Source: a bacterium (GTDB lineage Bacteria; Patescibacteriota; Minisyncoccia; Minisyncoccales; UBA10102). Taken from it: a stretch of DNA of 48,809 nt. Within the stretch, counting starts at the first letter, position 1. Each line of letters begins with the position of its first letter. A program made the position numbers and the translations under genes. Below the pieces are notes generated by a model. It was not told the origin of the DNA. It saw only the letters and a program-made list of their open reading frames with translations, and ran no database searches. Positions 5,388 to 48,809 of the stretch are shown here, piece after piece. The stretch lies in the NCBI GenBank assembly GCA_027624865.1, contig JAQBTT010000002.1:1-48809 (forward strand), read 5' to 3'.

Positions 5388-6476
5388 CTAGAATATCCTA
5401 ATAACATCTTTTATGGTAACCCAGATCATCATTGATATTAACAGGACAAACACTATTGCAGAAAGTCTCTTTTCAAAAGTTTCTGAAATAGGCTTTTTGC
5501 GTATTGCTTCTATTGTTAAAAATAGCAATTTCCCGCCATCAACCACAGGGATAGGAAGAGCGTTGAAGATAGCAAGGTACACTGCAAGAACAGCAAGGAA
5601 AGAAAGGAAGTGAGGCACTCCAAGTGATAGAGAGTTTGTTAAAAGATGAACAATGCCAACTGGACCTGTAAATTCAACTCCTGCCGGCACGCCCCTACCA
5701 GATACAAGGTTTACAGCAAGGCCTCCAAGACCACCTATAATTTCTCCAGTAAGTTTTCCTGTTCTAATTACCCCTTGCACGGGAGCCTCAAGTAGTGTGT
5801 ATTTCACAAATGCAGTTCGCACAAGAGCAACTCCCATAGATCCTTCCCCGTCGGGTGGATCTATTCTTGGCATTAACGTAACCTCACTAATTTCATCCCC
5901 TCGCTTAAGAGTAATAATGATTTCTTCTCCTACTACCTTATCGGTGAAGGATTGCACCTCCCCAACTTTTGTTGGGAAAGCAAATGCTCCAGAGGTAGAG
6001 CTCACCATTTTTACAATGCTGTCTCCAAGCTCAATGCCAGCTATTTTCGCCGGAGAGTCCTTTGCTACACCAAGAATTTGTACTTGAGGATTTATTACTC
6101 CTGCAGTTTCTTCATCTCCAATTCCCGTTGGAATACCACTGGTAGCGCCAAGCCCAGTAAAGATAATGACGGCCACAAGCCAAAAGGCCACAACACCAGC
6201 TGCAACGATAACCATTCTTTGCCATATGGGTTTTGCAGAAAAGCTTCGGGGACCGGGGATAGCTTGTTCCTCTCCTTCAAGGCGTACAAAGGCACCTAGC
6301 GGAAGTAAGTTGATAGAATAAATAGTCTCCCCTATCTTTTTCCCAATCAGGCGAGGGGGAAGTCCAATACCAAACTCTTCAACTTTTACCCCATACTTTT
6401 TTGCAAAAAGATAGTGGCCCAGTTCATGCAGGATAACCAAAATAAGAAAGCTTGCGATAACGATAATAAGTGTCAT
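5388..6476 (-). CDS. rseP: RIP site-2 metalloprotease (M50) with PDZ domain
   Basis: 362-aa ORF with HELGHYLFAKKYG (HExxH), multiple TM segments and a central PDZ-like region. Confidence 0.88.
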   Translation of the reverse strand: MTLIIVIASFLILVILHELGHYLFAKKYGVKVEEFGIGLPPRLIGKKIGETIYSINLLPLGAFVRLEGEEQAIPGPRSFSAKPIWQRMVIVAAGVVAFWLVAVIIFTGLGATSGIPTGIGDEETAGVINPQVQILGVAKDSPAKIAGIELGDSIVKMVSSTSGAFAFPTKVGEVQSFTDKVVGEEIIITLKRGDEISEVTLMPRIDPPDGEGSMGVALVRTAFVKYTLLEAPVQGVIRTGKLTGEIIGGLGGLAVNLVSGRGVPAGVEFTGPVGIVHLLTNSLSLGVPHFLSFLAVLAVYLAIFNALPIPVVDGGKLLFLTIEAIRKKPISETFEKRLSAIVFVLLISMMIWVTIKDVIRIF

Positions 6477-6565
6477 AATTTCTAATTTTTAATTTAAAAA
6501 CAATTTCTAATTTAAAATTTAAAATTTATCATTGTTTTTGAATTTGAAATTTATCATTTGTTTTT
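6477..6565. repeat. AT-rich spacer repeat, family E (copy E1)
   Basis: Shares attgtttttgaatttgaaatttatcattt (29/29 nt) and tttttaatttaaaaacaatt with 47303-47434; fills the frr-rseP spacer. Confidence 0.8.
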
Positions 6566-8870: not shown

Positions 8871-8935
8871 ACCCCGCCCTCTATGCCATTTAAACTGTGA
8901 TTTTTCTCTTACTTAAACAGCTTAGAGGGCGGGGT
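8871..8935. repeat. GC-clamped hairpin repeat, family B (copy B1)
   Basis: accccgccctcta...tagagggcggggt inverted arms; its loop is similar to copy B3; lies between the murA stop and the mreB start. Confidence 0.85.
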
Positions 8936-11914: not shown

Positions 11915-13306
11915 ATGACTAAACGTCAGCGTACATTACTGTTTTCCTCGCTCCTTGGTCTTTTTTTTATTCTAGCTCCCTCATTTGCTCTGTATTCACA
12001 AGGATATCGGATTGATTTTCAAGGAGCAAGAATAGCAAAGACAGGTGCTTTTTATTTTAAAGTAGCCCCCTCAAGAGCAGATGTCTTTATTGATGGAAAT
12101 TTAATGAAAAAAACGGATTTCCTCTTTGGTTCTTTGCTTACAAAAAACTTCTTCCCTGAAAGTTACTTCGTTGAGATTGTAAAGGAAGGGTATCACTCCT
12201 GGCAAAAAATCCTTACTATAGAGGAGCAGCAAGTTACCGAAGCAAAGAATATTTTGTTGTTTAAGAAGAACCCTGCATTTCAAAAGCTTGCAGATGGGGT
12301 TTTACATTTTTGGATTTCTCCAAGTAAGCAATATGCAATATTAGAGAAAGCGGGAGAGAAGAAAATGCAATTGCTCAATCTTGAAACTGGGGGCACGGAG
12401 CCCTTGAAAAGAGAAGCACACAAGGGAGATAAGATTATTAATATTACATGGGCAAAGGATTCACGCCGATTCCTGCTTCGCGCCACCAGCAAAGAACAAC
12501 TCATTTACGAGGTTTGGAATATCTCAAATAATAAGCCTTGCTTTCTTATCCCTTGCAGTCTTACATATCTTGGGGAGGATATAGGAAACGTGCAATTTTC
12601 TCCAACATCACCAGAAGAGGTACTCTTCACTAAATTTCTCAATACAACGCAGGTATTGCTTACAGCGCCATACATAGAGCAAGAAATAGCAACTCCAATT
12701 GCAAATAATATTGTAGCTTTTACTAGTTATGGAGATTTTATCTTTTGGCTCGCTAGCGATGGTACACTTTGGCAGAAAGATAGTAATGGAGGTAGCGCAC
12801 CACAAATTTTTCAAGAATCAGCTTTTTTACCAAAAAAAGAAACTGATTATGAATTGAAAGTTGTTGGCGATGCTATATTAGTAAAAGAAGATACGACACT
12901 ATTTTTGCATAAGAGAGGTGACTTGAAGCGACGTGAAATCCTTTCACCTGTCTTTGAATTTGCCATTGATTCAGGTGGCACTAAAGTGGCGCTTTACAAT
13001 CAATCGGAACTATGGGTACTCTTTTTAAAGGAAGAGACAGAGCAGCCACAGCATAATGCAGGAGAGCTAACTTTGCTTACGCGATTTGCGCAATCCCCAA
13101 AACAGATTACCTGGATTGATTCCTCCTACCTTCTCTTCAGCTTAGAGAATATATTGCGTAACGTTGAAATTGACATAAGAGGCAGTCTAAACGTTGTAGA
13201 TATTGCCTCATTCCCCTCTCCAGAATTCTTTTGGAACAACGAAAAAGGCACCCTCTATATCTTAAGCAAGGGTGCCTTCTCTGTTTCCGAACAACTCGTA
13301 CGCTAG
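11915..13306 (+). CDS. Membrane-anchored protein with a PEGA-like domain and a beta-rich C-terminal region
   Basis: The ORF-track start at 11888 is TTG; the ATG at 11915 gives MTKRQRTLLFSSLLGLFFIL (signal anchor). Contains ADVFIDGN...VEIVKEGYHSW (PEGA-like). TATAAT at 11902-11907. Confidence 0.7.
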   Translation: MTKRQRTLLFSSLLGLFFILAPSFALYSQGYRIDFQGARIAKTGAFYFKVAPSRADVFIDGNLMKKTDFLFGSLLTKNFFPESYFVEIVKEGYHSWQKILTIEEQQVTEAKNILLFKKNPAFQKLADGVLHFWISPSKQYAILEKAGEKKMQLLNLETGGTEPLKREAHKGDKIINITWAKDSRRFLLRATSKEQLIYEVWNISNNKPCFLIPCSLTYLGEDIGNVQFSPTSPEEVLFTKFLNTTQVLLTAPYIEQEIATPIANNIVAFTSYGDFIFWLASDGTLWQKDSNGGSAPQIFQESAFLPKKETDYELKVVGDAILVKEDTTLFLHKRGDLKRREILSPVFEFAIDSGGTKVALYNQSELWVLFLKEETEQPQHNAGELTLLTRFAQSPKQITWIDSSYLLFSLENILRNVEIDIRGSLNVVDIASFPSPEFFWNNEKGTLYILSKGAFSVSEQLVR

Positions 13307-13307
13307 G

Positions 13308-13602
13308 TTACCGTTTCCTCCAATGCCGAGTCGCTTGGCTCCATTAAAATGTTCGCCTGCGCTCCTTAAAACCCCTCGGTTTTAATATTTCCGCCACGGG
13401 AAAGAATACTTCTCTCCCGACCCCTCTCTAGACAGTGTCGAAAGCTATCGCTTCCTCCACTGTCTAGTCGCTTGGCTCCATTAAAATGTTCGCCTGCGCT
13501 CCTTAAAACCCCTCGGTTTTAATATTTCCGCCACGGGGAGATACCCAATCTCCCCGACCCCCTCTGTGCAGACAGTGTCAGAAACTACCGTTTCCTCCAC
13601 TG
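13308..13602. repeat. Family G element: two tandem 137-bp units plus three copies of the rpsI 3' end
   Basis: Units 13329-13465 and 13466-13602 share 72 identical nt and then diverge in a hairpin. rpsI-end copies lie at 13308-13325, 13445-13465 and 13585-13602 (the real one). Confidence 0.85.
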
Positions 13603-15744: not shown

Positions 15745-15774
15745 GCGAAAATAAATTTATTTATTTATTTGAGC

Positions 15775-15876
15775 ACCCCGCCCTCTATGCAGTTGGACAG
15801 AATGCTTATTTTTTACTTTTCACTCTACACTAAAACATACTTCATGCCCTTTGTAAATATGCAGAGAGGGCGGGGT
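15775..15876. repeat. GC-clamped hairpin repeat, family B (copy B2)
   Basis: accccgccctctatgca...tgcagagagggcggggt; followed on the mRNA by the shared leader gctcaaataaataaataaatttattttcgc-ATG(rpoA). Confidence 0.85.
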
Positions 15877-15893
15877 AACTCGGCGCTACCTCG

Positions 15894-16856: not shown

Positions 16857-17015
16857 AATGCTTTTACTTCGTAAAAGAAACTCGAAATTCGAATATCGAA
16901 ATACGAAACAAATTAGAAATTCTAAATTCTAATTTTCTAACCTGTTTTGAATTTTGTATTTTGGTCATTAGTATTTGTTTAGGATTTCGGATTTCGTGCT
17001 TCGGATTTCCCACCG
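16857..17015. repeat. AT-rich heptamer-periodic hairpin spacer, family D (copy D1)
   Basis: Homologous over most of its length to 44171-44313 (cgaaattcgaatatcgaaat...ggatttcggatttcgtgcttcgg). Ends with the hairpin cttttac-ttc-gtaaaag 4 nt from the rpsK ATG. Confidence 0.8.
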
Positions 17016-17405: not shown

Positions 17406-17476
17406 AGTATTTTTACTTCGTAAAAGAATTTCTAATTTCTAAACCCTAGTTTCTAAATAGAAGGTTGGAATACTAT

Positions 17477-17630
17477 TTTTCTGGAAGCTCTCGGAGGCAG
17501 TTTTGCCCGCCTGCAACGCTTGATGCGTAGCATCTGCGGGCAGGCATGGTCCGCCGATGAGGCGGAAAACTGCCGAGAGTGCAACTCCCAAAATCCAGCT
17601 GGGGATTTTGAGGGGCGGTTCCTAAGAAAA
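17477..17630. repeat. Structured GC-rich repeat, family A (copy A1, with an extra nested hairpin)
   Basis: Shares gcatggtc, ccgagagtgcaRctcccaa and gaggRgcggttc blocks with 33171-33289 and 46692-46809; its stems co-vary between copies. Confidence 0.8.
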
Positions 17631-17647
17631 TATAGTATCCAAGCTTC

Positions 17648-17764
17648 CTATCCCTGCCTCTGTTTATGCTTTGGATTCTTCTTGCATGTAACAAACAGCA
17701 CCCTTTCTCGCTTTACGATTGTGCAGTCTTTACATATCCTCTTTATGGTTGAACGAACCTTCAT
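17648..17764 (-). CDS. rpmJ: Ribosomal protein bL36
   Basis: Not in the ORF track (38 aa). Hand translation gives [38 protein letters not shown], between infA and rpsM. Confidence 0.9.
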
Positions 17765-28389: not shown

Positions 28390-28974
28390 CTAAAAGAGTC
28401 CGCTTACTGCTGTTTCCATATCCTCCTGTACTTTCTTCACGTCTTGATTTCCATTTACCTCAACAAGCTTTCCTTGTTTTCTGTAGTGCTCAATAACTGG
28501 GACTACCTCATCTTCGTACCATTCCATTCGTTTTGCAATTGCTGACGCACTATCATCTGCGCGACCGCGCATCAAGAGACGCTTCTCAGACTCCTCCTTT
28601 GAAATACTCAGGTGAATCACTCTAAAGTTCTCCTCAAGCTCATAGAACTGATAAATCTCATCTAGAAGAAAGGCTTCATATACTTTTCGAGGGCTCCCCT
28701 CAAAAACAATCCCTTGATATTCTCCCTTTTCCTGTATGCTCTCCAGCTCATGTAACCACATATCAAATATGATAGGTGTCGGCATCAATCCTCCTGTGTT
28801 TAATATCTCCTTAATTTTAGTTCCAATAAAATCTTCCTTTTCTGCGCGCTCACGCAAAAGTCCTCCTGAGCTAATAATTTTTAAATTAAACTCCTTGGCA
28901 AGAAACGCTGATTGCGTCCCCTTCCCTGAGCCTGGTCTTCCCAGAATAGGGATAATAGAAAACTTCTTATTCAT
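28390..28974 (-). CDS. Adenylate/nucleoside-monophosphate kinase paralogue (short LID)
   Basis: 194-aa ORF with P-loop GRPGSGKGTQ and GGLLRE. Confidence 0.8.
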   Translation of the reverse strand: MNKKFSIIPILGRPGSGKGTQSAFLAKEFNLKIISSGGLLRERAEKEDFIGTKIKEILNTGGLMPTPIIFDMWLHELESIQEKGEYQGIVFEGSPRKVYEAFLLDEIYQFYELEENFRVIHLSISKEESEKRLLMRGRADDSASAIAKRMEWYEDEVVPVIEHYRKQGKLVEVNGNQDVKKVQEDMETAVSGLF

Positions 28975-29684
28975 ACACCTTGTGCAATTGTATTGATACG
29001 TGAGAACACCTCTGACACAGAACCAGTGGCAGAAATACGATGCACGGGGATTCCTTGCTCTTCAAAATACTCAAGCAATGGGAAGGTCTCCTTTCTAAAT
29101 GTTGCAAGACGCGTTGTGATAAGCTCAGGAGTATCGAAAGAGCGAGTAATCAACTTTGAGCCATCAAGAGGGCACAGAGTTAATTGCTCCGTTTCTTTAA
29201 TATATAAAATGGGGTGGCGTACAAGCTCACAAATACGTCGATGAGAATTTCGAAATATCGTATCCTCTTCATCAACATCAAGGTACAGAACAATAATATT
29301 TTCTTTTCCAAATGATTCAAGAGCAAAAGGCATGAGATATTCCATTTGAGAAATAGCTCGAGGAAATCCATCAAGTAGTATGCTTTGCTCCTCTCTCTTT
29401 AATCTTTTTAGGCGAGCCCTGACTGTATCTACAACGAAAGGAGTCTCATTGAGCACTCCACTTTCCCAAAGCTTTTGCTGATCTGCAACGTAATACTTCT
29501 TCCCTTCACTCTCTACATACTCTCCGGGCTCTGCATTCAAAAACCTCTCTTCCAAGAGTTTACTCATCTCAATGCGAGTAAGGCGCAATTTATCAGCTAA
29601 CAGGAGTGTCTGAGTTCCTTTTCCAGAACCTGGTGCACCAAGAAAGATATAGAGACGTTCTTTTAATTGTTGAGGAAGTTCCAT
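28971..29684 (-). CDS. adk: Adenylate kinase (long form)
   Basis: 237-aa ORF with P-loop GAPGSGKGTQ and LLDGFPR, in the canonical position after secY. Confidence 0.85.
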   Translation of the reverse strand: MELPQQLKERLYIFLGAPGSGKGTQTLLLADKLRLTRIEMSKLLEERFLNAEPGEYVESEGKKYYVADQQKLWESGVLNETPFVVDTVRARLKRLKREEQSILLDGFPRAISQMEYLMPFALESFGKENIIVLYLDVDEEDTIFRNSHRRICELVRHPILYIKETEQLTLCPLDGSKLITRSFDTPELITTRLATFRKETFPLLEYFEEQGIPVHRISATGSVSEVFSRINTIAQGV

Positions 29685-33080: not shown

Positions 33081-33170
33081 AAATTTCTAATTTCTAAATC
33101 CTAATTTTAAATTAAATCCTCTCCCTTCCCGAGATCTCCCACAGGGAGACAATGACCAAATACTTTCTGT

Positions 33171-33289
33171 GAGAAATGTTGCTCTCCGGGAAGCTCTCGC
33201 AGGTGTTTTGGCATGGTCTTGAGCGAAGCGAAAGCAAAACACCGAGAGTGCAGCTCCCAAAATCCGGCTGGGGATTTTGAGGAGCGGTT
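33171..33289. repeat. Structured GC-rich repeat, family A (copy A2)
   Basis: gctctccgggaagctctcgcaggtgttttggcatggtc...caaaacaccgagagtgcagctcccaaaatccggctggggattttgaggagcggttctccgggagc; between rpsH and rplF. Confidence 0.8.
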
Positions 33290-33349
33290 CTCCGGGAGCA
33301 ATATTCCGAGCAGAACTGATTGTTTGAAATGTATTGATAATCATATTTT

Positions 33350-36167: not shown

Positions 36168-36194
36168 ATGCGAAAATAAATTTATTTATTGAGC

Positions 36195-36281
36195 ACCCCG
36201 CCCTCTATGCCGTTCAAACTGTGTAATCTTTCATTGCTCAAACAGCTTAGAGGGCGGGGTTTCGTAGCGCTTCTGCGCTAC
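36195..36281. repeat. GC-clamped hairpin repeat, family B (copy B3), plus the accessory hairpin gtagcgc-ttct-gcgctac
   Basis: accccgccctcta...tagagggcggggt at 36195-36260. The small hairpin at 36264-36281 contains the rpsC TAG stop. Shared leader gctcaataaataaatttattttcgc before the rplP ATG. Confidence 0.85.
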
Positions 36282-36935: not shown

Positions 36936-37054
36936 ACCCCGCCCTCTAGGCTCTATGTACTGTTGTTGAAGACTCACAGGGCAAGATTTCTTTCAATATA
37001 GCGTCTTCAAACATACAGCATAGAGGGCGGGGTTTCGTAGCGCTTCTGCGCTAC
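36936..37054. repeat. GC-clamped hairpin repeat, family B (copy B4), plus the accessory hairpin
   Basis: The same arms and the same gtagcgcttctgcgctac hairpin as B3, but a different loop. Shared leader before the rpsC ATG. Confidence 0.85.
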
Positions 37055-44170: not shown

Positions 44171-44313
44171 AGGCTTTTACTTCTTAAAAGAAATTCGAAT
44201 ATCGAATATCGAAATTAGAAACAAATACAAAAATTCTAATGTTCCAAGTTGAAAGCTTTTTATATTTTGGGTTTTAGTCATTGGGATTTGTTTCGGATTT
44301 CGTGCTTCGGGTT
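44171..44313. repeat. AT-rich heptamer-periodic hairpin spacer, family D (copy D2)
   Basis: Homologous to 16857-17015; ends with cttttac-ttc-ttaaaag 3 nt from the ORF-69 ATG. Confidence 0.8.
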
Positions 44314-46452
44314 TTATCTCCTCTTACCGTCTATTATCTCTTGCGCAATATTTACTGGTACCTCCTCGTAGGTATCGAACTCCATAGTAAAGGTTCCGCG
44401 CCCTTCAGTCAAGGACCTTAGGTTGGTCGCATACCCAAACATCTCAGCTAATGGAATCTTTACATTCACTACCTTCAAGTTTACCCTATCAAACGTTTCA
44501 TCAATCTTGCCTCTTCGCGATGATAAATCTCCAATAACATCTCCAAGAAAATCAGGAGGAATCACTACCTCAAGACTCATCACAGGTTCAAGGAGCATTG
44601 CTCCTGCTTTCTTTGCTGCTGATTGAAAGGCAATGGAGGCTGCAATCTTAAACGCAAATTCAGAGGAGTCTACTTCGTGAAAGGAACCATCATATAGCGT
44701 TGCCTTAATATCAATCATGGGGTACCCAGCTACCACTCCCTTATCCATTGCTTCCTTAATCCCCTTTTCTACAGCTGGAATATATTCGTGAGGAATTGAA
44801 CCACCTTTAATTTCATTTACATACTCAAATCCTTCCCCTCTCTCCTTTGGAGCAACGCGCAAGAGAACGTGTCCATACTGACCACGACCTCCTGACTGAC
44901 GTATGTACTTTTCCTCAGCTTGACCATCTGTCTTAATCGTCTCTTTGTATGCCACCTGAGGTCTCCCAACGTTTGCTGTAACATCAAACTCCCGCTTCAT
45001 TCTATCTACGATAATTTCCAAGTGCAGCTCCCCCATCCCAGAGATAATAGTATCTCCGGTTTCCTGGTCAGAGGAAACTCGCAATGTTGGATCCTCATCC
45101 GACAAACGTTTAAGCGCCATTCCCATCTTCTCTTGGTCAACTTTTGTTGCAGGTTCTATGCGAACTGAGATAACAGGCTCAGGGAAGCTAATTTGCTCAA
45201 GTAAAATGGGACTGCCCTCATCAGCCAACGTATGCCCTGTAGTGGTGTTTTTAAGGCCCACAGTGGCAGCAATATCTCCTGCAAAGAGTTCATCTACATC
45301 TTCTCTCTCGTTTGCATGCATTCTTAAGATTCGAGCAATTCTCTCTTTCTCTCCAGTGGTAACGTTTAGTACGTATGAACCCTTTTTTAACGTTCCAGAG
45401 TACACTCGAAAGTATGTTAAGGCACCTACAAAAGGATCAGTTGCAACCTTAAAAGCAAGAGAGGAAAAGGGTTCATCATCCGCAGCATGGCGCTCAATCT
45501 CCTCACCAGATTTTGGATTAATTCCCTTAATGGGTGGAACATCTACGGGAGAAGGAAGGTAATCTACTACTCCATCTAGCATAAGTTGGACTCCTTTGTT
45601 TTTTAAAGAAGAACCTACAAAGACAGGGACCAACTTGTTTGCCAGCGTTGCTTCTCGCAATACCTTTTTAATCTCGTCTGCTGGGATTTCCTCACCTGCA
45701 ATATATTTATTCATTAAGTTCTCATTTTCCCCAGCTACCTTCTCCATGAGCTTCTCTCGCCATTCCTTTGCTTTTTCTGTAAGGTCCGCTGGAATCTCTT
45801 CTTCTACAATTGTTTCTCCAAAGACTCCATCAAAAGAGTAAGCCTTCATTTTGATGAGATCTATGCACTTGGTGAACTTATCTTCCTCTCCATTGGGAAA
45901 TTGCACTGCAACAGCATTTTTGGTAAGTTTCTCTCCAATGGAAGCAAAGCTCTTTTCAAAGGAAGCTCCCATACGATCCAACTTGTTGATAAAGCAGATG
46001 CGGGGAACTTCAAACTTATCAGCCTGACGCCATACGGTTTCTGACTGGGGTTCCACTCCCGCTACCCCATCAAAAAGCACTACAGCTCCATCCAATACTC
46101 GAAGTGAGCGTTGTACCTCTACGGTAAAATCAATATGCCCTGGGGTATCAATAATATTAATACGATATTCGTGTTCTTTTCTGCGTTTTTCTGCGTCCTG
46201 GTCTGCGTTTTTCTGCGTGCCAACGTAAGTTGGCAACCAAAAGCATGTAGTAGCAGCTGAGGTAATGGTAATACCTCGCTCTCGTTCTTGAGCCATCCAG
46301 TCCATAACAGCGGCGCCTTCATGCACCTCCCCTATTTTGTGTGAAATACCTGTATAAAACAAAATACGCTCGGTAGTAGTCGTCTTACCAGCATCAATAT
46401 GAGCAATAATACCGATATCTCTTATTTTTTCAATTGGATATACGCGTGGCAT
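44314..46452 (-). CDS. fusA: Elongation factor G
   Basis: 712-aa ORF ([25 protein letters not shown]). Confidence 0.97.
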
Positions 46453-46492
46453 ATTAGTTATGAGTATTAAATACTTGCGAATGTTGATGTAA

Positions 46493-46561
46493 GAGAGGGG
46501 TCGGGAGAGAAGTATTCTCTCCCGTGGCGGAAATATTAAAACCGAGGGGTTTTAAGGAGCG
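46493..46561. repeat. Family G core (copy G3), inverted relative to the rpsI-locus copies
   Basis: The reverse complement matches cgctccttaaaacccctcggttttaatatttccgccacgggaRagaatacttctctcccgacccctctc of 13360-13430. Confidence 0.85.
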
Positions 46562-46573
46562 AGGGACGAGCGA

Positions 46574-46636
46574 CGCGTCGATATGGGCGATAATCCCAAT
46601 ATCACGGATTTGCTCTATAGGATATTGTCTTGGCAT
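46574..46636 (-). pseudogene. Orphan diverged copy of the first 21 codons of fusA
   Basis: [21 protein letters not shown] versus the real [21 protein letters not shown]. Many synonymous differences; it runs into the G3 element and a stop codon. Confidence 0.8.
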
Positions 46637-46638
46637 AT

Positions 46639-46680
46639 AGGAATTAGGAATTAGGTTGTAGGTTGTAGGTTGTAGGAGGC
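46639..46680. repeat. Six tandem heptamers (AGGAATT x2, AGGTTGT x3, AGGAGGC)
   Basis: Read directly from the sequence. The same AGGTTGT x3 tract occurs inside gatA at 1686-1720. Confidence 0.9.
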
Positions 46681-46691
46681 GAGGCAATGAA

Positions 46692-46809
46692 TTTTTAACA
46701 AGCTCGCGCAGGCGATTTGGCATGGTCTCCGAGCTTGCCGAGGAGAAAACTTCCGAGGGTGCAGCTCCCAATTTGCGCTGGCGAATTGAGGAGCGGTTCT
46801 CAAGAAAAC
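46692..46809. repeat. Structured GC-rich repeat, family A (copy A3)
   Basis: gcatggtc, ccgagggtgcagctcccaa and gaggagcggttc blocks are conserved. The distal hairpin is rewritten as caatttgc-gctg-gcgaattg. Confidence 0.75.
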
Positions 46810-46834
46810 AGCATCCAAGCATCATCTCCATCCC

Positions 46835-47302
46835 TCACCATGCGAAATGCGCGAATGCTCGGTTCGCCTCTGCCATGCGATGAGTATCTTCTTTTTTCTT
46901 AAAGGCAGTTCCTTCACTCTTATATGCTGCCATAAGTTCCTCGGCAAGTTTTTCACGCATTGGCTTTCCTTTCTTTCCTCGTGCTGCATTAATAATCCAA
47001 CGAGTAGCCAAAGACTCTTTGCGGTGGTCCTTTACCTGTACAGGAACCTGATAGGTAGCGCCTCCAACTCTTTTGGAGCGCACCTCAAGCAATGGAGCAA
47101 CATTTTCTAAAGCCTTCTGGAATACCTCGATAGGATCTTTCTTGGTTTTGTCTTTAATAATTTCCAAAGCACCATACACAATCTTTCGTGCGGCAGACTT
47201 TTTCCCCTCAGTCATAATATGATTGATAAACTTAGCAATCTGCACATTATTGTGAACCAAGTCAGGATGAGGAATTCTTTTTTGTATTTTGTATCGAGGC
47301 AT
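46835..47302 (-). CDS. rpsG: Ribosomal protein uS7
   Basis: 155-aa ORF ([16 protein letters not shown]...). Confidence 0.95.
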
Positions 47303-47434
47303 ATAACTTTTATTGCGTAAAAGAAATTTCTAATTTCAAATTTTTAATTTAAAAACAATTCACTAATTTCTAATTTTAAAATTGAATATTTGAAATTGTT
47401 TTTGAATTTGAAATTTATCATTTAAAATTTATAC
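47303..47434. repeat. AT-rich spacer repeat, family E (copy E2)
   Basis: Shares two long blocks with 6477-6565; ends with cttttat-tgc-gtaaaag 4 nt from the rpsG ATG. Confidence 0.8.
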
Positions 47435-48780: not shown

Positions 48781-48809
48781 TTTCGCCCGCCTGCAACGCT
48801 TGATGCGTA
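48781..48809. repeat. Partial family A sub-element cut by the window edge (copy A4)
   Basis: gcccgcctgcaacgcttgatgcgta is identical (25/25) to 17505-17529. Confidence 0.7.

Follow-up and report, generated by a model that had tools for sequence, protein, structure and literature searches.

Family A, a structured non-coding repeat in ribosomal-protein operon spacers of Patescibacteria

Among described bacterial repeats, the closest known elements to the one reported here in size and setting are ERIC and Correia. ERIC is a non-coding, imperfect palindrome of ~130-150 nt found in transcribed intra-operon spacers; it varies between related genomes, accepts internal insertions at set places and occurs in both orientations. 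The Correia/NEMIS elements of Neisseria are ~100-150 nt long, bear terminal inverted repeats and insert beside genes, and the hairpin formed from their ends is a substrate of RNase III. For REP, ERIC and Correia elements alike, effects on the stability or translation of neighbouring cistrons have been reported. We know of no interspersed repeat family described for the Patescibacteria, whose genomes are among the smallest and most compact in bacteria, and a full-text literature search found no paper pairing Patescibacteria with MITE or REP elements. Here we describe family A, a so far undescribed repeat family that is common in groundwater and marine-sediment metagenomes. It came to light in the spacers of ribosomal-protein operons, which rank with the most strongly conserved and expressed regions of a genome, within a 48,809-nt stretch of patescibacterial DNA (hereafter the window).

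Family A resembles ERIC in length, in its imperfect and non-coding palindrome, in its place within intra-operon spacers, in its variable presence among related genomes and in its internal insertions at set places. However, the two share no sequence similarity, and family A has a three-way-junction tip with invariant junction nucleotides and has been seen in Patescibacteria in a single orientation so far. With Correia it shares its size, its terminal inverted repeats and its position beside genes, with which it would be co-transcribed; but Correia duplicates a TA target and carries an IHF site and promoter parts, whereas family A has neither a duplication nor a promoter signal. The REP/BIME-RAYT systems and the IS200/IS605 PATEs are similar in being defined by structure, in lacking target duplication, in their compensatory hairpins and in their orientation bias. 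REPs are only 20-40 nt long, though, and the ends of PATEs are unpaired, whereas family A is 143 nt long with paired ends, and we found no conserved flanking tetranucleotide and, in the 49 kb of the window, no RAYT or TnpA gene. Rickettsia palindromic elements (RPEs) and yeast mitochondrial GC clusters are likewise GC-rich folding repeats that have entered compact, AT-richer genomes where they cause little harm, but RPEs often lie in frame inside genes while family A copies are intergenic and the reading frames that cross them differ. Finally, autoregulatory leaders are also structured RNAs in the spacers of ribosomal-protein operons, yet one and the same family A element precedes rpsM, rplF, fusA and a MazG-like gene.

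Copies and fold of family A

The L2 protein places the window organism as a Patescibacterium near Wildermuthbacteria/Parcubacteria. The source contig comes from an aquatic metagenome (run X1), and the 1-kb stretch of flanking genes around the first copy is indexed in that run only. Searched with a covariance model of the copies, the window yields three matches and no others:

17463-17644, + strand: A1, between the rpmJ stop codon (17648-17650) and the rpsM start (17405); covariance model R1, 131.5 bits, E 3e-34
33169-33311, + strand: A2, in the rpsH/rplF spacer; covariance model R1, 157.9 bits, the top-scoring copy
46679-46820, + strand: A3, in the rpsG/fusA spacer, after the rpsG stop codon (46835-46837); covariance model R1, 120.8 bits

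An earlier note on this DNA, made from the sequence alone, had reported conserved blocks in three ribosomal-protein spacers, and we confirm that each block occurs exactly three times, always on the + strand: GAGRGTGCARCTCCCAA at 17575, 33244 and 46755, and TTGAGGRGCGGTTC at 17608, 33277 and 46786. These matches lie far above what shuffled sequence yields (0 of 100 shuffles gave as many matches for GAGRGTGCARCTCCCAA) and are not due to chance. The coordinates given there were too narrow, as following the pairing to its ends leads to the limits listed above. The closing stem of the note is not flanking sequence but part of the element and reaches the conserved termini, which on the + strand read 5'-(A)GCGAGGCA ... 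TGCCGAGC-3' and are degenerate in A1 and A2. Once a foreign nested insert of 39 nt is removed from the 182 nt of A1, the units measure 143, 143 and 142 nt in A1, A2 and A3.

All genes around the family A copies are carried on the - strand. The window copies begin 3-30 nt past the stop codon of the upstream gene, and AT-rich heptamer repeats separate them from the next start codon; the rpsG-fusA spacer measures 382 nt and the rpsH-rplF spacer 269 nt. More generally, every copy with known flanks lies between co-directional genes, in one orientation and 1-30 nt after a stop codon, and the GC skew of the window suggests that these genes are co-directional with replication.

In the predicted fold of family A, a long rod, the two ends pair over ~24 bp (P1), a pairing present in every copy, and close a three-way junction that bears an arm composed of P2, P3 and P3a and a P4 hairpin. 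With A2 as the reference copy for part coordinates, owing to its best score with covariance model R1, the parts are as follows:

33169-33192, + strand: 5' arm of P1, pairing with 33288-33311; compensatory changes occur in P1
33288-33311, + strand: 3' arm of P1, from the fold prediction
33193-33249, + strand: the P2-P3-P3a arm, from Alifold
33193-33198 with 33244-33249, + strand: P2, from Alifold
33202-33210 with 33235-33243, + strand: P3, with two-sided changes in 6 of 9 pairs
33211-33218, + strand: conserved asymmetric bulge GCATGGTC, RNA consensus GCAUGGUY
33219-33234, + strand: P3a, a variable hairpin whose length and sequence differ among copies
33250-33287, + strand: P4 arm with junction nucleotides; hairpin GCAGCTCCCAAAATCC / GGATTTTGAGGAGC, loop 33266-33271

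The predicted folding energies are -71.3 kcal/mol for A1 (z -4.2) and -62.6 kcal/mol for A2 (z -6.0). Decay is most advanced in A3, whose P3 and P1 are partly mispaired and whose fold reaches a z of only -2.7 on the + strand and 0.0 on the - strand.

The paired stem changes to which the earlier note had pointed are real in our alignment, and its multi-stem structure with compensatory changes has been borne out with more sequences. Four sequences show two-sided changes in 10 of 40 pairs, against 3.5 +/- 1.4 after shuffling (0 of 500 as high) and 0-4 pairs in controls with slid pairing, and with the seven distinct copies whose full sequences could be compared, the number rises to 23 of 39 pairs; further copies are known as sequencing depth, variant tables and 30-nt loose ends. 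The most divergent stem exchange is seen in A9, where the whole P4 arm is swapped for GGTTGGCTCCGACC/GGTCGGAGAACAACC with its pairing retained and where P1, P3 and P3a also differ. The constant parts are the termini, the bulge GCAUGGU and the junction strands GAGAG(U/C)GCA and CGGU. Most groundwater copies read GAGAGCGCAG, the majority consensus, where the window has GAGAGTGCAR; this variant gives P2 a G-C instead of a G.U pair at its base. Covariation of this extent is what a structured RNA is expected to show; palindromic DNA repeats show the same, so that it is no proof of an RNA by itself.

In all seven copies the fold of the + strand, which is antisense to the genes, is 3-12 kcal/mol more stable than that of the - strand. 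In the seven-sequence alignment, G.U cells on the + strand number 18 and A.C cells, which correspond to G.U on the - strand, number 6, although these counts reduce to ~9 versus 5 independent events and the difference is not significant. On the basis of these predictions we lean towards the + strand as the structured one. The RNA-labelled runs that contain the element are direction-less, whole-genome-amplified contigs, and all other runs with the element are DNA.

On the gene strand the bulge reads RACCAUGC (33211-33218, 17544-17551 and 46721-46728). In every copy known in full, a short frame of 9-35 codons, M(P/Q)xxLREL..., begins at the AUG of this bulge; in A3 it runs in frame into a relic fusA start. 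The exposed AUG could matter for ribosome loading. A coding reading was nevertheless rejected: frames differ between copies, and the residues of the mini-ORF change exactly where P3 covaries. The earlier claim that the crossing ORFs have no conserved frame and that the element is non-coding is borne out, as those ORFs lie in differing frames and have no protein relatives, and six-frame translations of four copies found nothing in a set of 5.8 billion proteins.

Comparison with Rfam agrees with the statement in the earlier note that no described non-coding RNA is recognisable. At gathering threshold, Rfam 15 identified only 2 tRNAs in the whole window, and relaxing the search to E = 10 for four copies brought no matching family; the S10-Clostridia ribosomal-protein leader reached 18.4 bits against a gathering threshold of 35.1, on the antisense strand. 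Known ribozymes and riboswitches gave no Rfam signal. Two candidates were considered and rejected, namely a hammerhead, whose GAUGAG...GAAA in A1 falls in the variable P3a loop, is missing in other copies and has no Rfam signal, and a group II intron domain 5 starting from GCGGUUC, with which length, loop and Rfam disagree. Outside the element, two small hairpins between A2 and rplF (33116-33152, - strand) weakly resemble the whalefall-1 RNA motif (18.6 bits against a gathering threshold of 37, E 0.015), probably by chance. Simple scans revealed no excess of promoters or terminators at the copies.

The 39 nt foreign to A1 form a separate repeat, element H, which the earlier note had taken for an extra nested hairpin belonging to A1 and, in its second occurrence, for a partial fourth copy of family A at 48781-48809:

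17505-17543, + strand: element H, a 39-nt GC-rich palindromic repeat within the internal loop of P3 in A1
48785-48809, + strand: element H, truncated solo copy at the window edge, upstream of an M50 peptidase gene

Positions 17505-17529 are identical to 48785-48809, the last 25 nt of the window, and no family A sequence precedes the latter copy. Run X1 also contains an A1-like copy with another left flank and without H; it has GGCATGGTTCTCGCGAAGCGAGAC there, an ordinary short P3a hairpin. The same run holds one further H copy with a different flank, and H reaches a depth of ~19x against ~5x in its flanks, about four times as much. Because a sister copy lacks it, because it recurs in other contexts and because its depth is raised, H is an independent small repeat that was inserted into A1. 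With its 39 nt it is nearer to REP in size than family A is.

Occurrence among relatives and in metagenomes

Family A is patchily distributed among the relatives of the window organism. A covariance-model search found no copy in two related contigs, L027 and L029, or in two shorter ones, and the spacers that are filled in the window are short in the former two:

L027: L2 83% identical; rpsG-fusA spacer 6 nt, rpsH-rplF spacer 1 nt
L029: L2 70% identical; rpsG-fusA spacer 104 nt, rpsH and rplF overlapping

Exact-protein look-ups of L36 and S14, aimed at orthologous spacers, returned no record. A fourth copy, A4, lies in the JGI groundwater contig L001, upstream of a MazG-like gene and adk. The host of this contig is distant, since its adk is only 36% identical to the closer window adk and 26% to the other paralogue, yet the element cores of L001 and the window are near-identical despite this distance. 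Further loci were reached through homologues of the L001 MazG-like protein. The secY/MazG spacer contains a copy in L001, L054/L055 and L052/L062, with A7/A8 and A9 situated at the same place in two other species, 1-2 nt after the secY stop codon, but no copy in L034 (31 nt) or L035 (an unrelated 121 nt). No direct repeats flank A1, A2, A3, A7/A8 or A9, and these sites have no flanking motif or target sequence in common. Judged from such sequence comparisons, the family A copies are lineage-specific insertions. The number of copies per genome looks modest, with 1 copy in 20 kb of L062. Tandem adenylate-kinase-like genes (237 and 194 aa) follow secY in the window (28390-29684), and L052/L062 have the same pair with a MazG-like gene in front.

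Metagenomic contigs show that the element is highly repeated. With contigs of the groundwater runs X4-X7 aligned to L001, depth was 100-1277x over the element versus 3-9x over the gene flank, with 16-37 contig pieces per run and several unrelated left flanks meeting the same element end. The depth in these runs peaks over the two terminal arms, and the termini are the best-conserved part of the groundwater subfamily. Run X1 has two more copies with other flanks besides the window's three in 49 kb. More than 20 marine-sediment and marine runs, drawn from many studies, contain 31-mers of A2; four of them show several copies, with differing P3/P3a and flanks, as well as apparent orthologues of A1 and A2. 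In run X20 an A2 orthologue shares 96% identity with A2, while the rpsH end next to it looks more diverged, as seen by eye in a single 30-nt loose end.

Contigs break off within the element in three independent assemblies of the L001 organism and, several times, in the A7 organism. Nesting was seen a second time at position 1224 of L001, inside a copy: one contig shares the left end only and then differs for at least 255 nt, its continuation opening with another AAGCGAGGC terminus. Scans of sequence collections with the strict patterns GTGCANCTCCCAA...TTGAGGNGCGG and GCATGGT...GAGNGTGCANCTCCC recovered far less: the genome collection yielded 0 true copies and 7 chance matches in high-GC genomes, and the JGI metagenomes 1 true copy (L001) and 1 chance match. 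Matches are few because the patterns were too strict: the GTGCAR of the window is GCGCAG in most copies. Three scans of viral contigs gave only chance matches and no covariance-model match, and on these grounds a phage element was rejected. Four phage contigs (L006, L010, L017 and L019) share ...tagcttaGAGGGTGCAACTCCCAAagctatactcctatcgac... downstream of a terminator-like hairpin; the stretch is unrelated to family A and, from its sequence, clearly appears to be a conserved non-coding feature of those four phages.

These patterns carry some practical consequences. Family A breaks metagenome assemblies at ribosomal-protein loci and so explains fragmented contigs used for phylogeny and binning. 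It may also serve as a marker for recent gene flow among uncultured Patescibacteria, and with its fold, its covariation and its conserved junction it is a well-defined candidate for the action of a repeat on operon mRNA.

Origin and possible function

Family A falls in the class of interspersed repeats because it is repeated, has terminal inverted repeats, occupies some sites and leaves the same sites empty in relatives, takes part in nesting, occurs in distant hosts and breaks assemblies. Its repetition, its covarying fold, its insertion polymorphism, its nesting and its wide distribution are direct observations. We read it as a mobile repeat, non-autonomous and non-coding, of the ERIC/Correia/REP/MITE kind and with its fold under selection, and give this reading a probability of roughly 55%. 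Family A would have colonised Patescibacteria genomes as a small mobile element, probably mobilised in trans, that inserted into the very short spacers of co-transcribed genes just after the upstream stop codon. Copies would then be co-transcribed within the operon mRNA and tolerated because they carry no terminator, and the fold may be retained because a mobilising enzyme recognises the folded strand or because it is harmless or useful in the transcript.

Which known class the element might belong to can be judged from several of its properties. Like a MITE, it is small, non-coding and present in many copies, has filled and empty sites among relatives and ends in terminal inverted repeats of ~24 bp with the termini GCGAGGCA and TGCCGAGC; unlike one, it has no fixed-length target-site duplication at the five sites compared. 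REP/BIME is a poor match for a 143-nt unit with a branched fold and solitary copies, and so is a ribosomal-protein leader for an element that sits in four different spacers and is missing there in L027, L029, L034 and L035. No transposase or other mobilising gene was found in the window. The earlier note had set a selected RNA or single-stranded DNA structure against an ordinary MITE. The selected structure stands, but the opposition does not, as both hold at once; the MITE alternative is favoured by long terminal inverted repeats, empty sites, nesting and repetition and lacks its target-site duplication. Family A also departs from a plain MITE in the invariant junction nucleotides at its branched tip and in copies that persist at one locus and covary across species. 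The compensatory change in old, diverged copies of one locus such as A4 and A9, the X20 orthologue, the conserved junction and the single orientation suggest a constraint beyond that on a dead selfish insert.

The main rival, which we consider doubtful, is that family A is a cis-acting RNA module of the operon mRNA, perhaps a former mobile element that is now kept for its function. By analogy with the Correia/NEMIS hairpin, which is the model for such an RNA-level role, its stem could be cut by an RNase III-type enzyme or could block 3' exonucleases, and in either case neighbouring ribosomal-protein cistrons would be uncoupled in stability or translation. The ~24-bp stem is long enough for RNase III, and the position of all known-flank copies, 1-30 nt after a stop codon between co-directional genes and in one orientation, is consistent with this role. 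So are the orthologous copies that persist with compensatory changes, one of which appears more conserved than the adjoining coding end (by eye, from one 30-nt loose end), and the conserved unpaired bulge RACCAUGC that exposes an AUG on the gene strand. However, close relatives manage without the element, and the genes that follow this module are unrelated to one another; in 7 of 7 copies RNA of the gene strand is the less stable of the two, and wobble-type pairs favour the opposite strand by 18 to 6. This rival is compatible with a mobile repeat rather than exclusive of it. A further proposal, which we regard as unlikely, is a domesticated mobile RNA module: its conserved three-way junction, with the exposed bulge GCAUGGU / ACCAUGC, would guide cleavage or be the binding site for a protein or ligand, and by spreading among ribosomal-protein cistrons the module would provide portable control over the stoichiometry or turnover of translation-machinery mRNAs. 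If true, it would explain why orthologues are kept, covary and are apparently more conserved than the neighbouring coding sequence.

The strand that folds better bears on two other explanations. Y1/HUH transposases recognise folded hairpins on one DNA strand and insert without target duplication, and family A might be a single-stranded DNA element moved by such an enzyme, either an IS200/IS605-type derivative (PATE) or a REP-like unit. The missing target duplication would fit, as would an orientation that is always the same with respect to genes which usually run with replication, the arms that conserve structure rather than sequence and the nesting of small palindromic repeats (H) in family A. 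We think this improbable, though, as the ends pair as long inverted repeats, unlike those of IS200/IS605, there is no conserved tetra- or pentanucleotide beside them, no Y1 transposase was seen and, if genes follow the fork as GC skew suggests, the better-folding + strand is the template of the leading strand, whereas it is the lagging-strand template that is exposed. It seems very improbable that family A is a small RNA gene of its own, or an RNA that binds a ligand or protein, made from the + strand antisense to the operons. The three-way junction with its invariant nucleotides would then be a functional core, in line with the conservation of the GCAUGGU, GAGAG(U/C)GCA and CGGU blocks while stems covary and with a + strand that folds 3-12 kcal/mol better in every copy and holds the larger share of G.U cells (18 against 6). 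Yet no promoter or terminator signal frames the element, the wobble counts are not independent (~9 versus 5) and fall short of significance, the P4 block that had been called conserved is wholly replaced in A9, and the element is patchy among relatives.

Other small repeats in the window

With family A and at least 3 other small repeat families, spacers of 0-6 nt in ribosomal-protein operons have grown to 240-380 nt. Family B occupies 8871-8935, 15771-15877, 36191-36261 and 36936-37034 and has perfect inverted repeats of 13-14 bp. Its ends read ACCCCGCCCTCTA(T/G)GC ... GC(A/T)TAGAGGGCGGGGT around variable centres of 45-90 nt. An AT-rich hairpin flanks it, and two copies have the GC hairpin GTAGCGCTTCTGCGCTAC beside them as well. 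Three of its four copies lie in ribosomal-protein spacers (rpsD/rpoA, rplP/rpsC and rpsC/rplV).

Family C was seen at two sites. The 5' end of fusA is present twice at 46453-46634 (- strand), as a relic start at ~46572-46634 followed by ~115 nt of family C (...ctccttaaaacccctcggttttaatatttccgccacggg...) and then by the genuine start at 46452. Many synonymous sites differ between the two copies, which are therefore not a fresh target duplication; judging from the sequence, the doubling looks like a replacement of the 5' end of the gene together with a family C repeat. Just downstream of rpsI (13300-13600), family C forms a tandem of ~137-nt units. Each unit opens by repeating the final ~15 nt of rpsI (ctaccgtttcctcca), and the fusA and rpsI cases thus tie the family to duplicated gene ends at two sites. 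By coordinate arithmetic, an independent assembly of the window organism appears to end in this tandem. The sequence AGCGAGGGACGAGCGAC (46558-46574) joins left and right ends that resemble those of family A with the interior missing, and is unique in the window and absent from shuffles; we dropped it as an excision footprint of family A, since part of it belongs to family C.

Heptamer runs lie immediately upstream of many start codons, at 17426-17463, 33081-33118, 46631-46676, 47324-47429, 6472-6559 and 1685-1716. On the gene strand they read TTTAGAA/ATTAGAA or CTACAAC/CTAATTC, and they take up the space that separates family A copies from the next gene. They bring to mind the direct heptamer repeats described between genes of Beggiatoaceae (PMC4679880). 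A small hairpin, CTTTTACGAAGTAAAAG on the gene strand, stands 2-4 nt before the starts of rpsK, rpsM, rpsG and a small ORF that precedes fusA (16860-16880, 17409-17430, 44173-44193 and 47306-47326); an A2-like copy from a marine run has this motif next to it.
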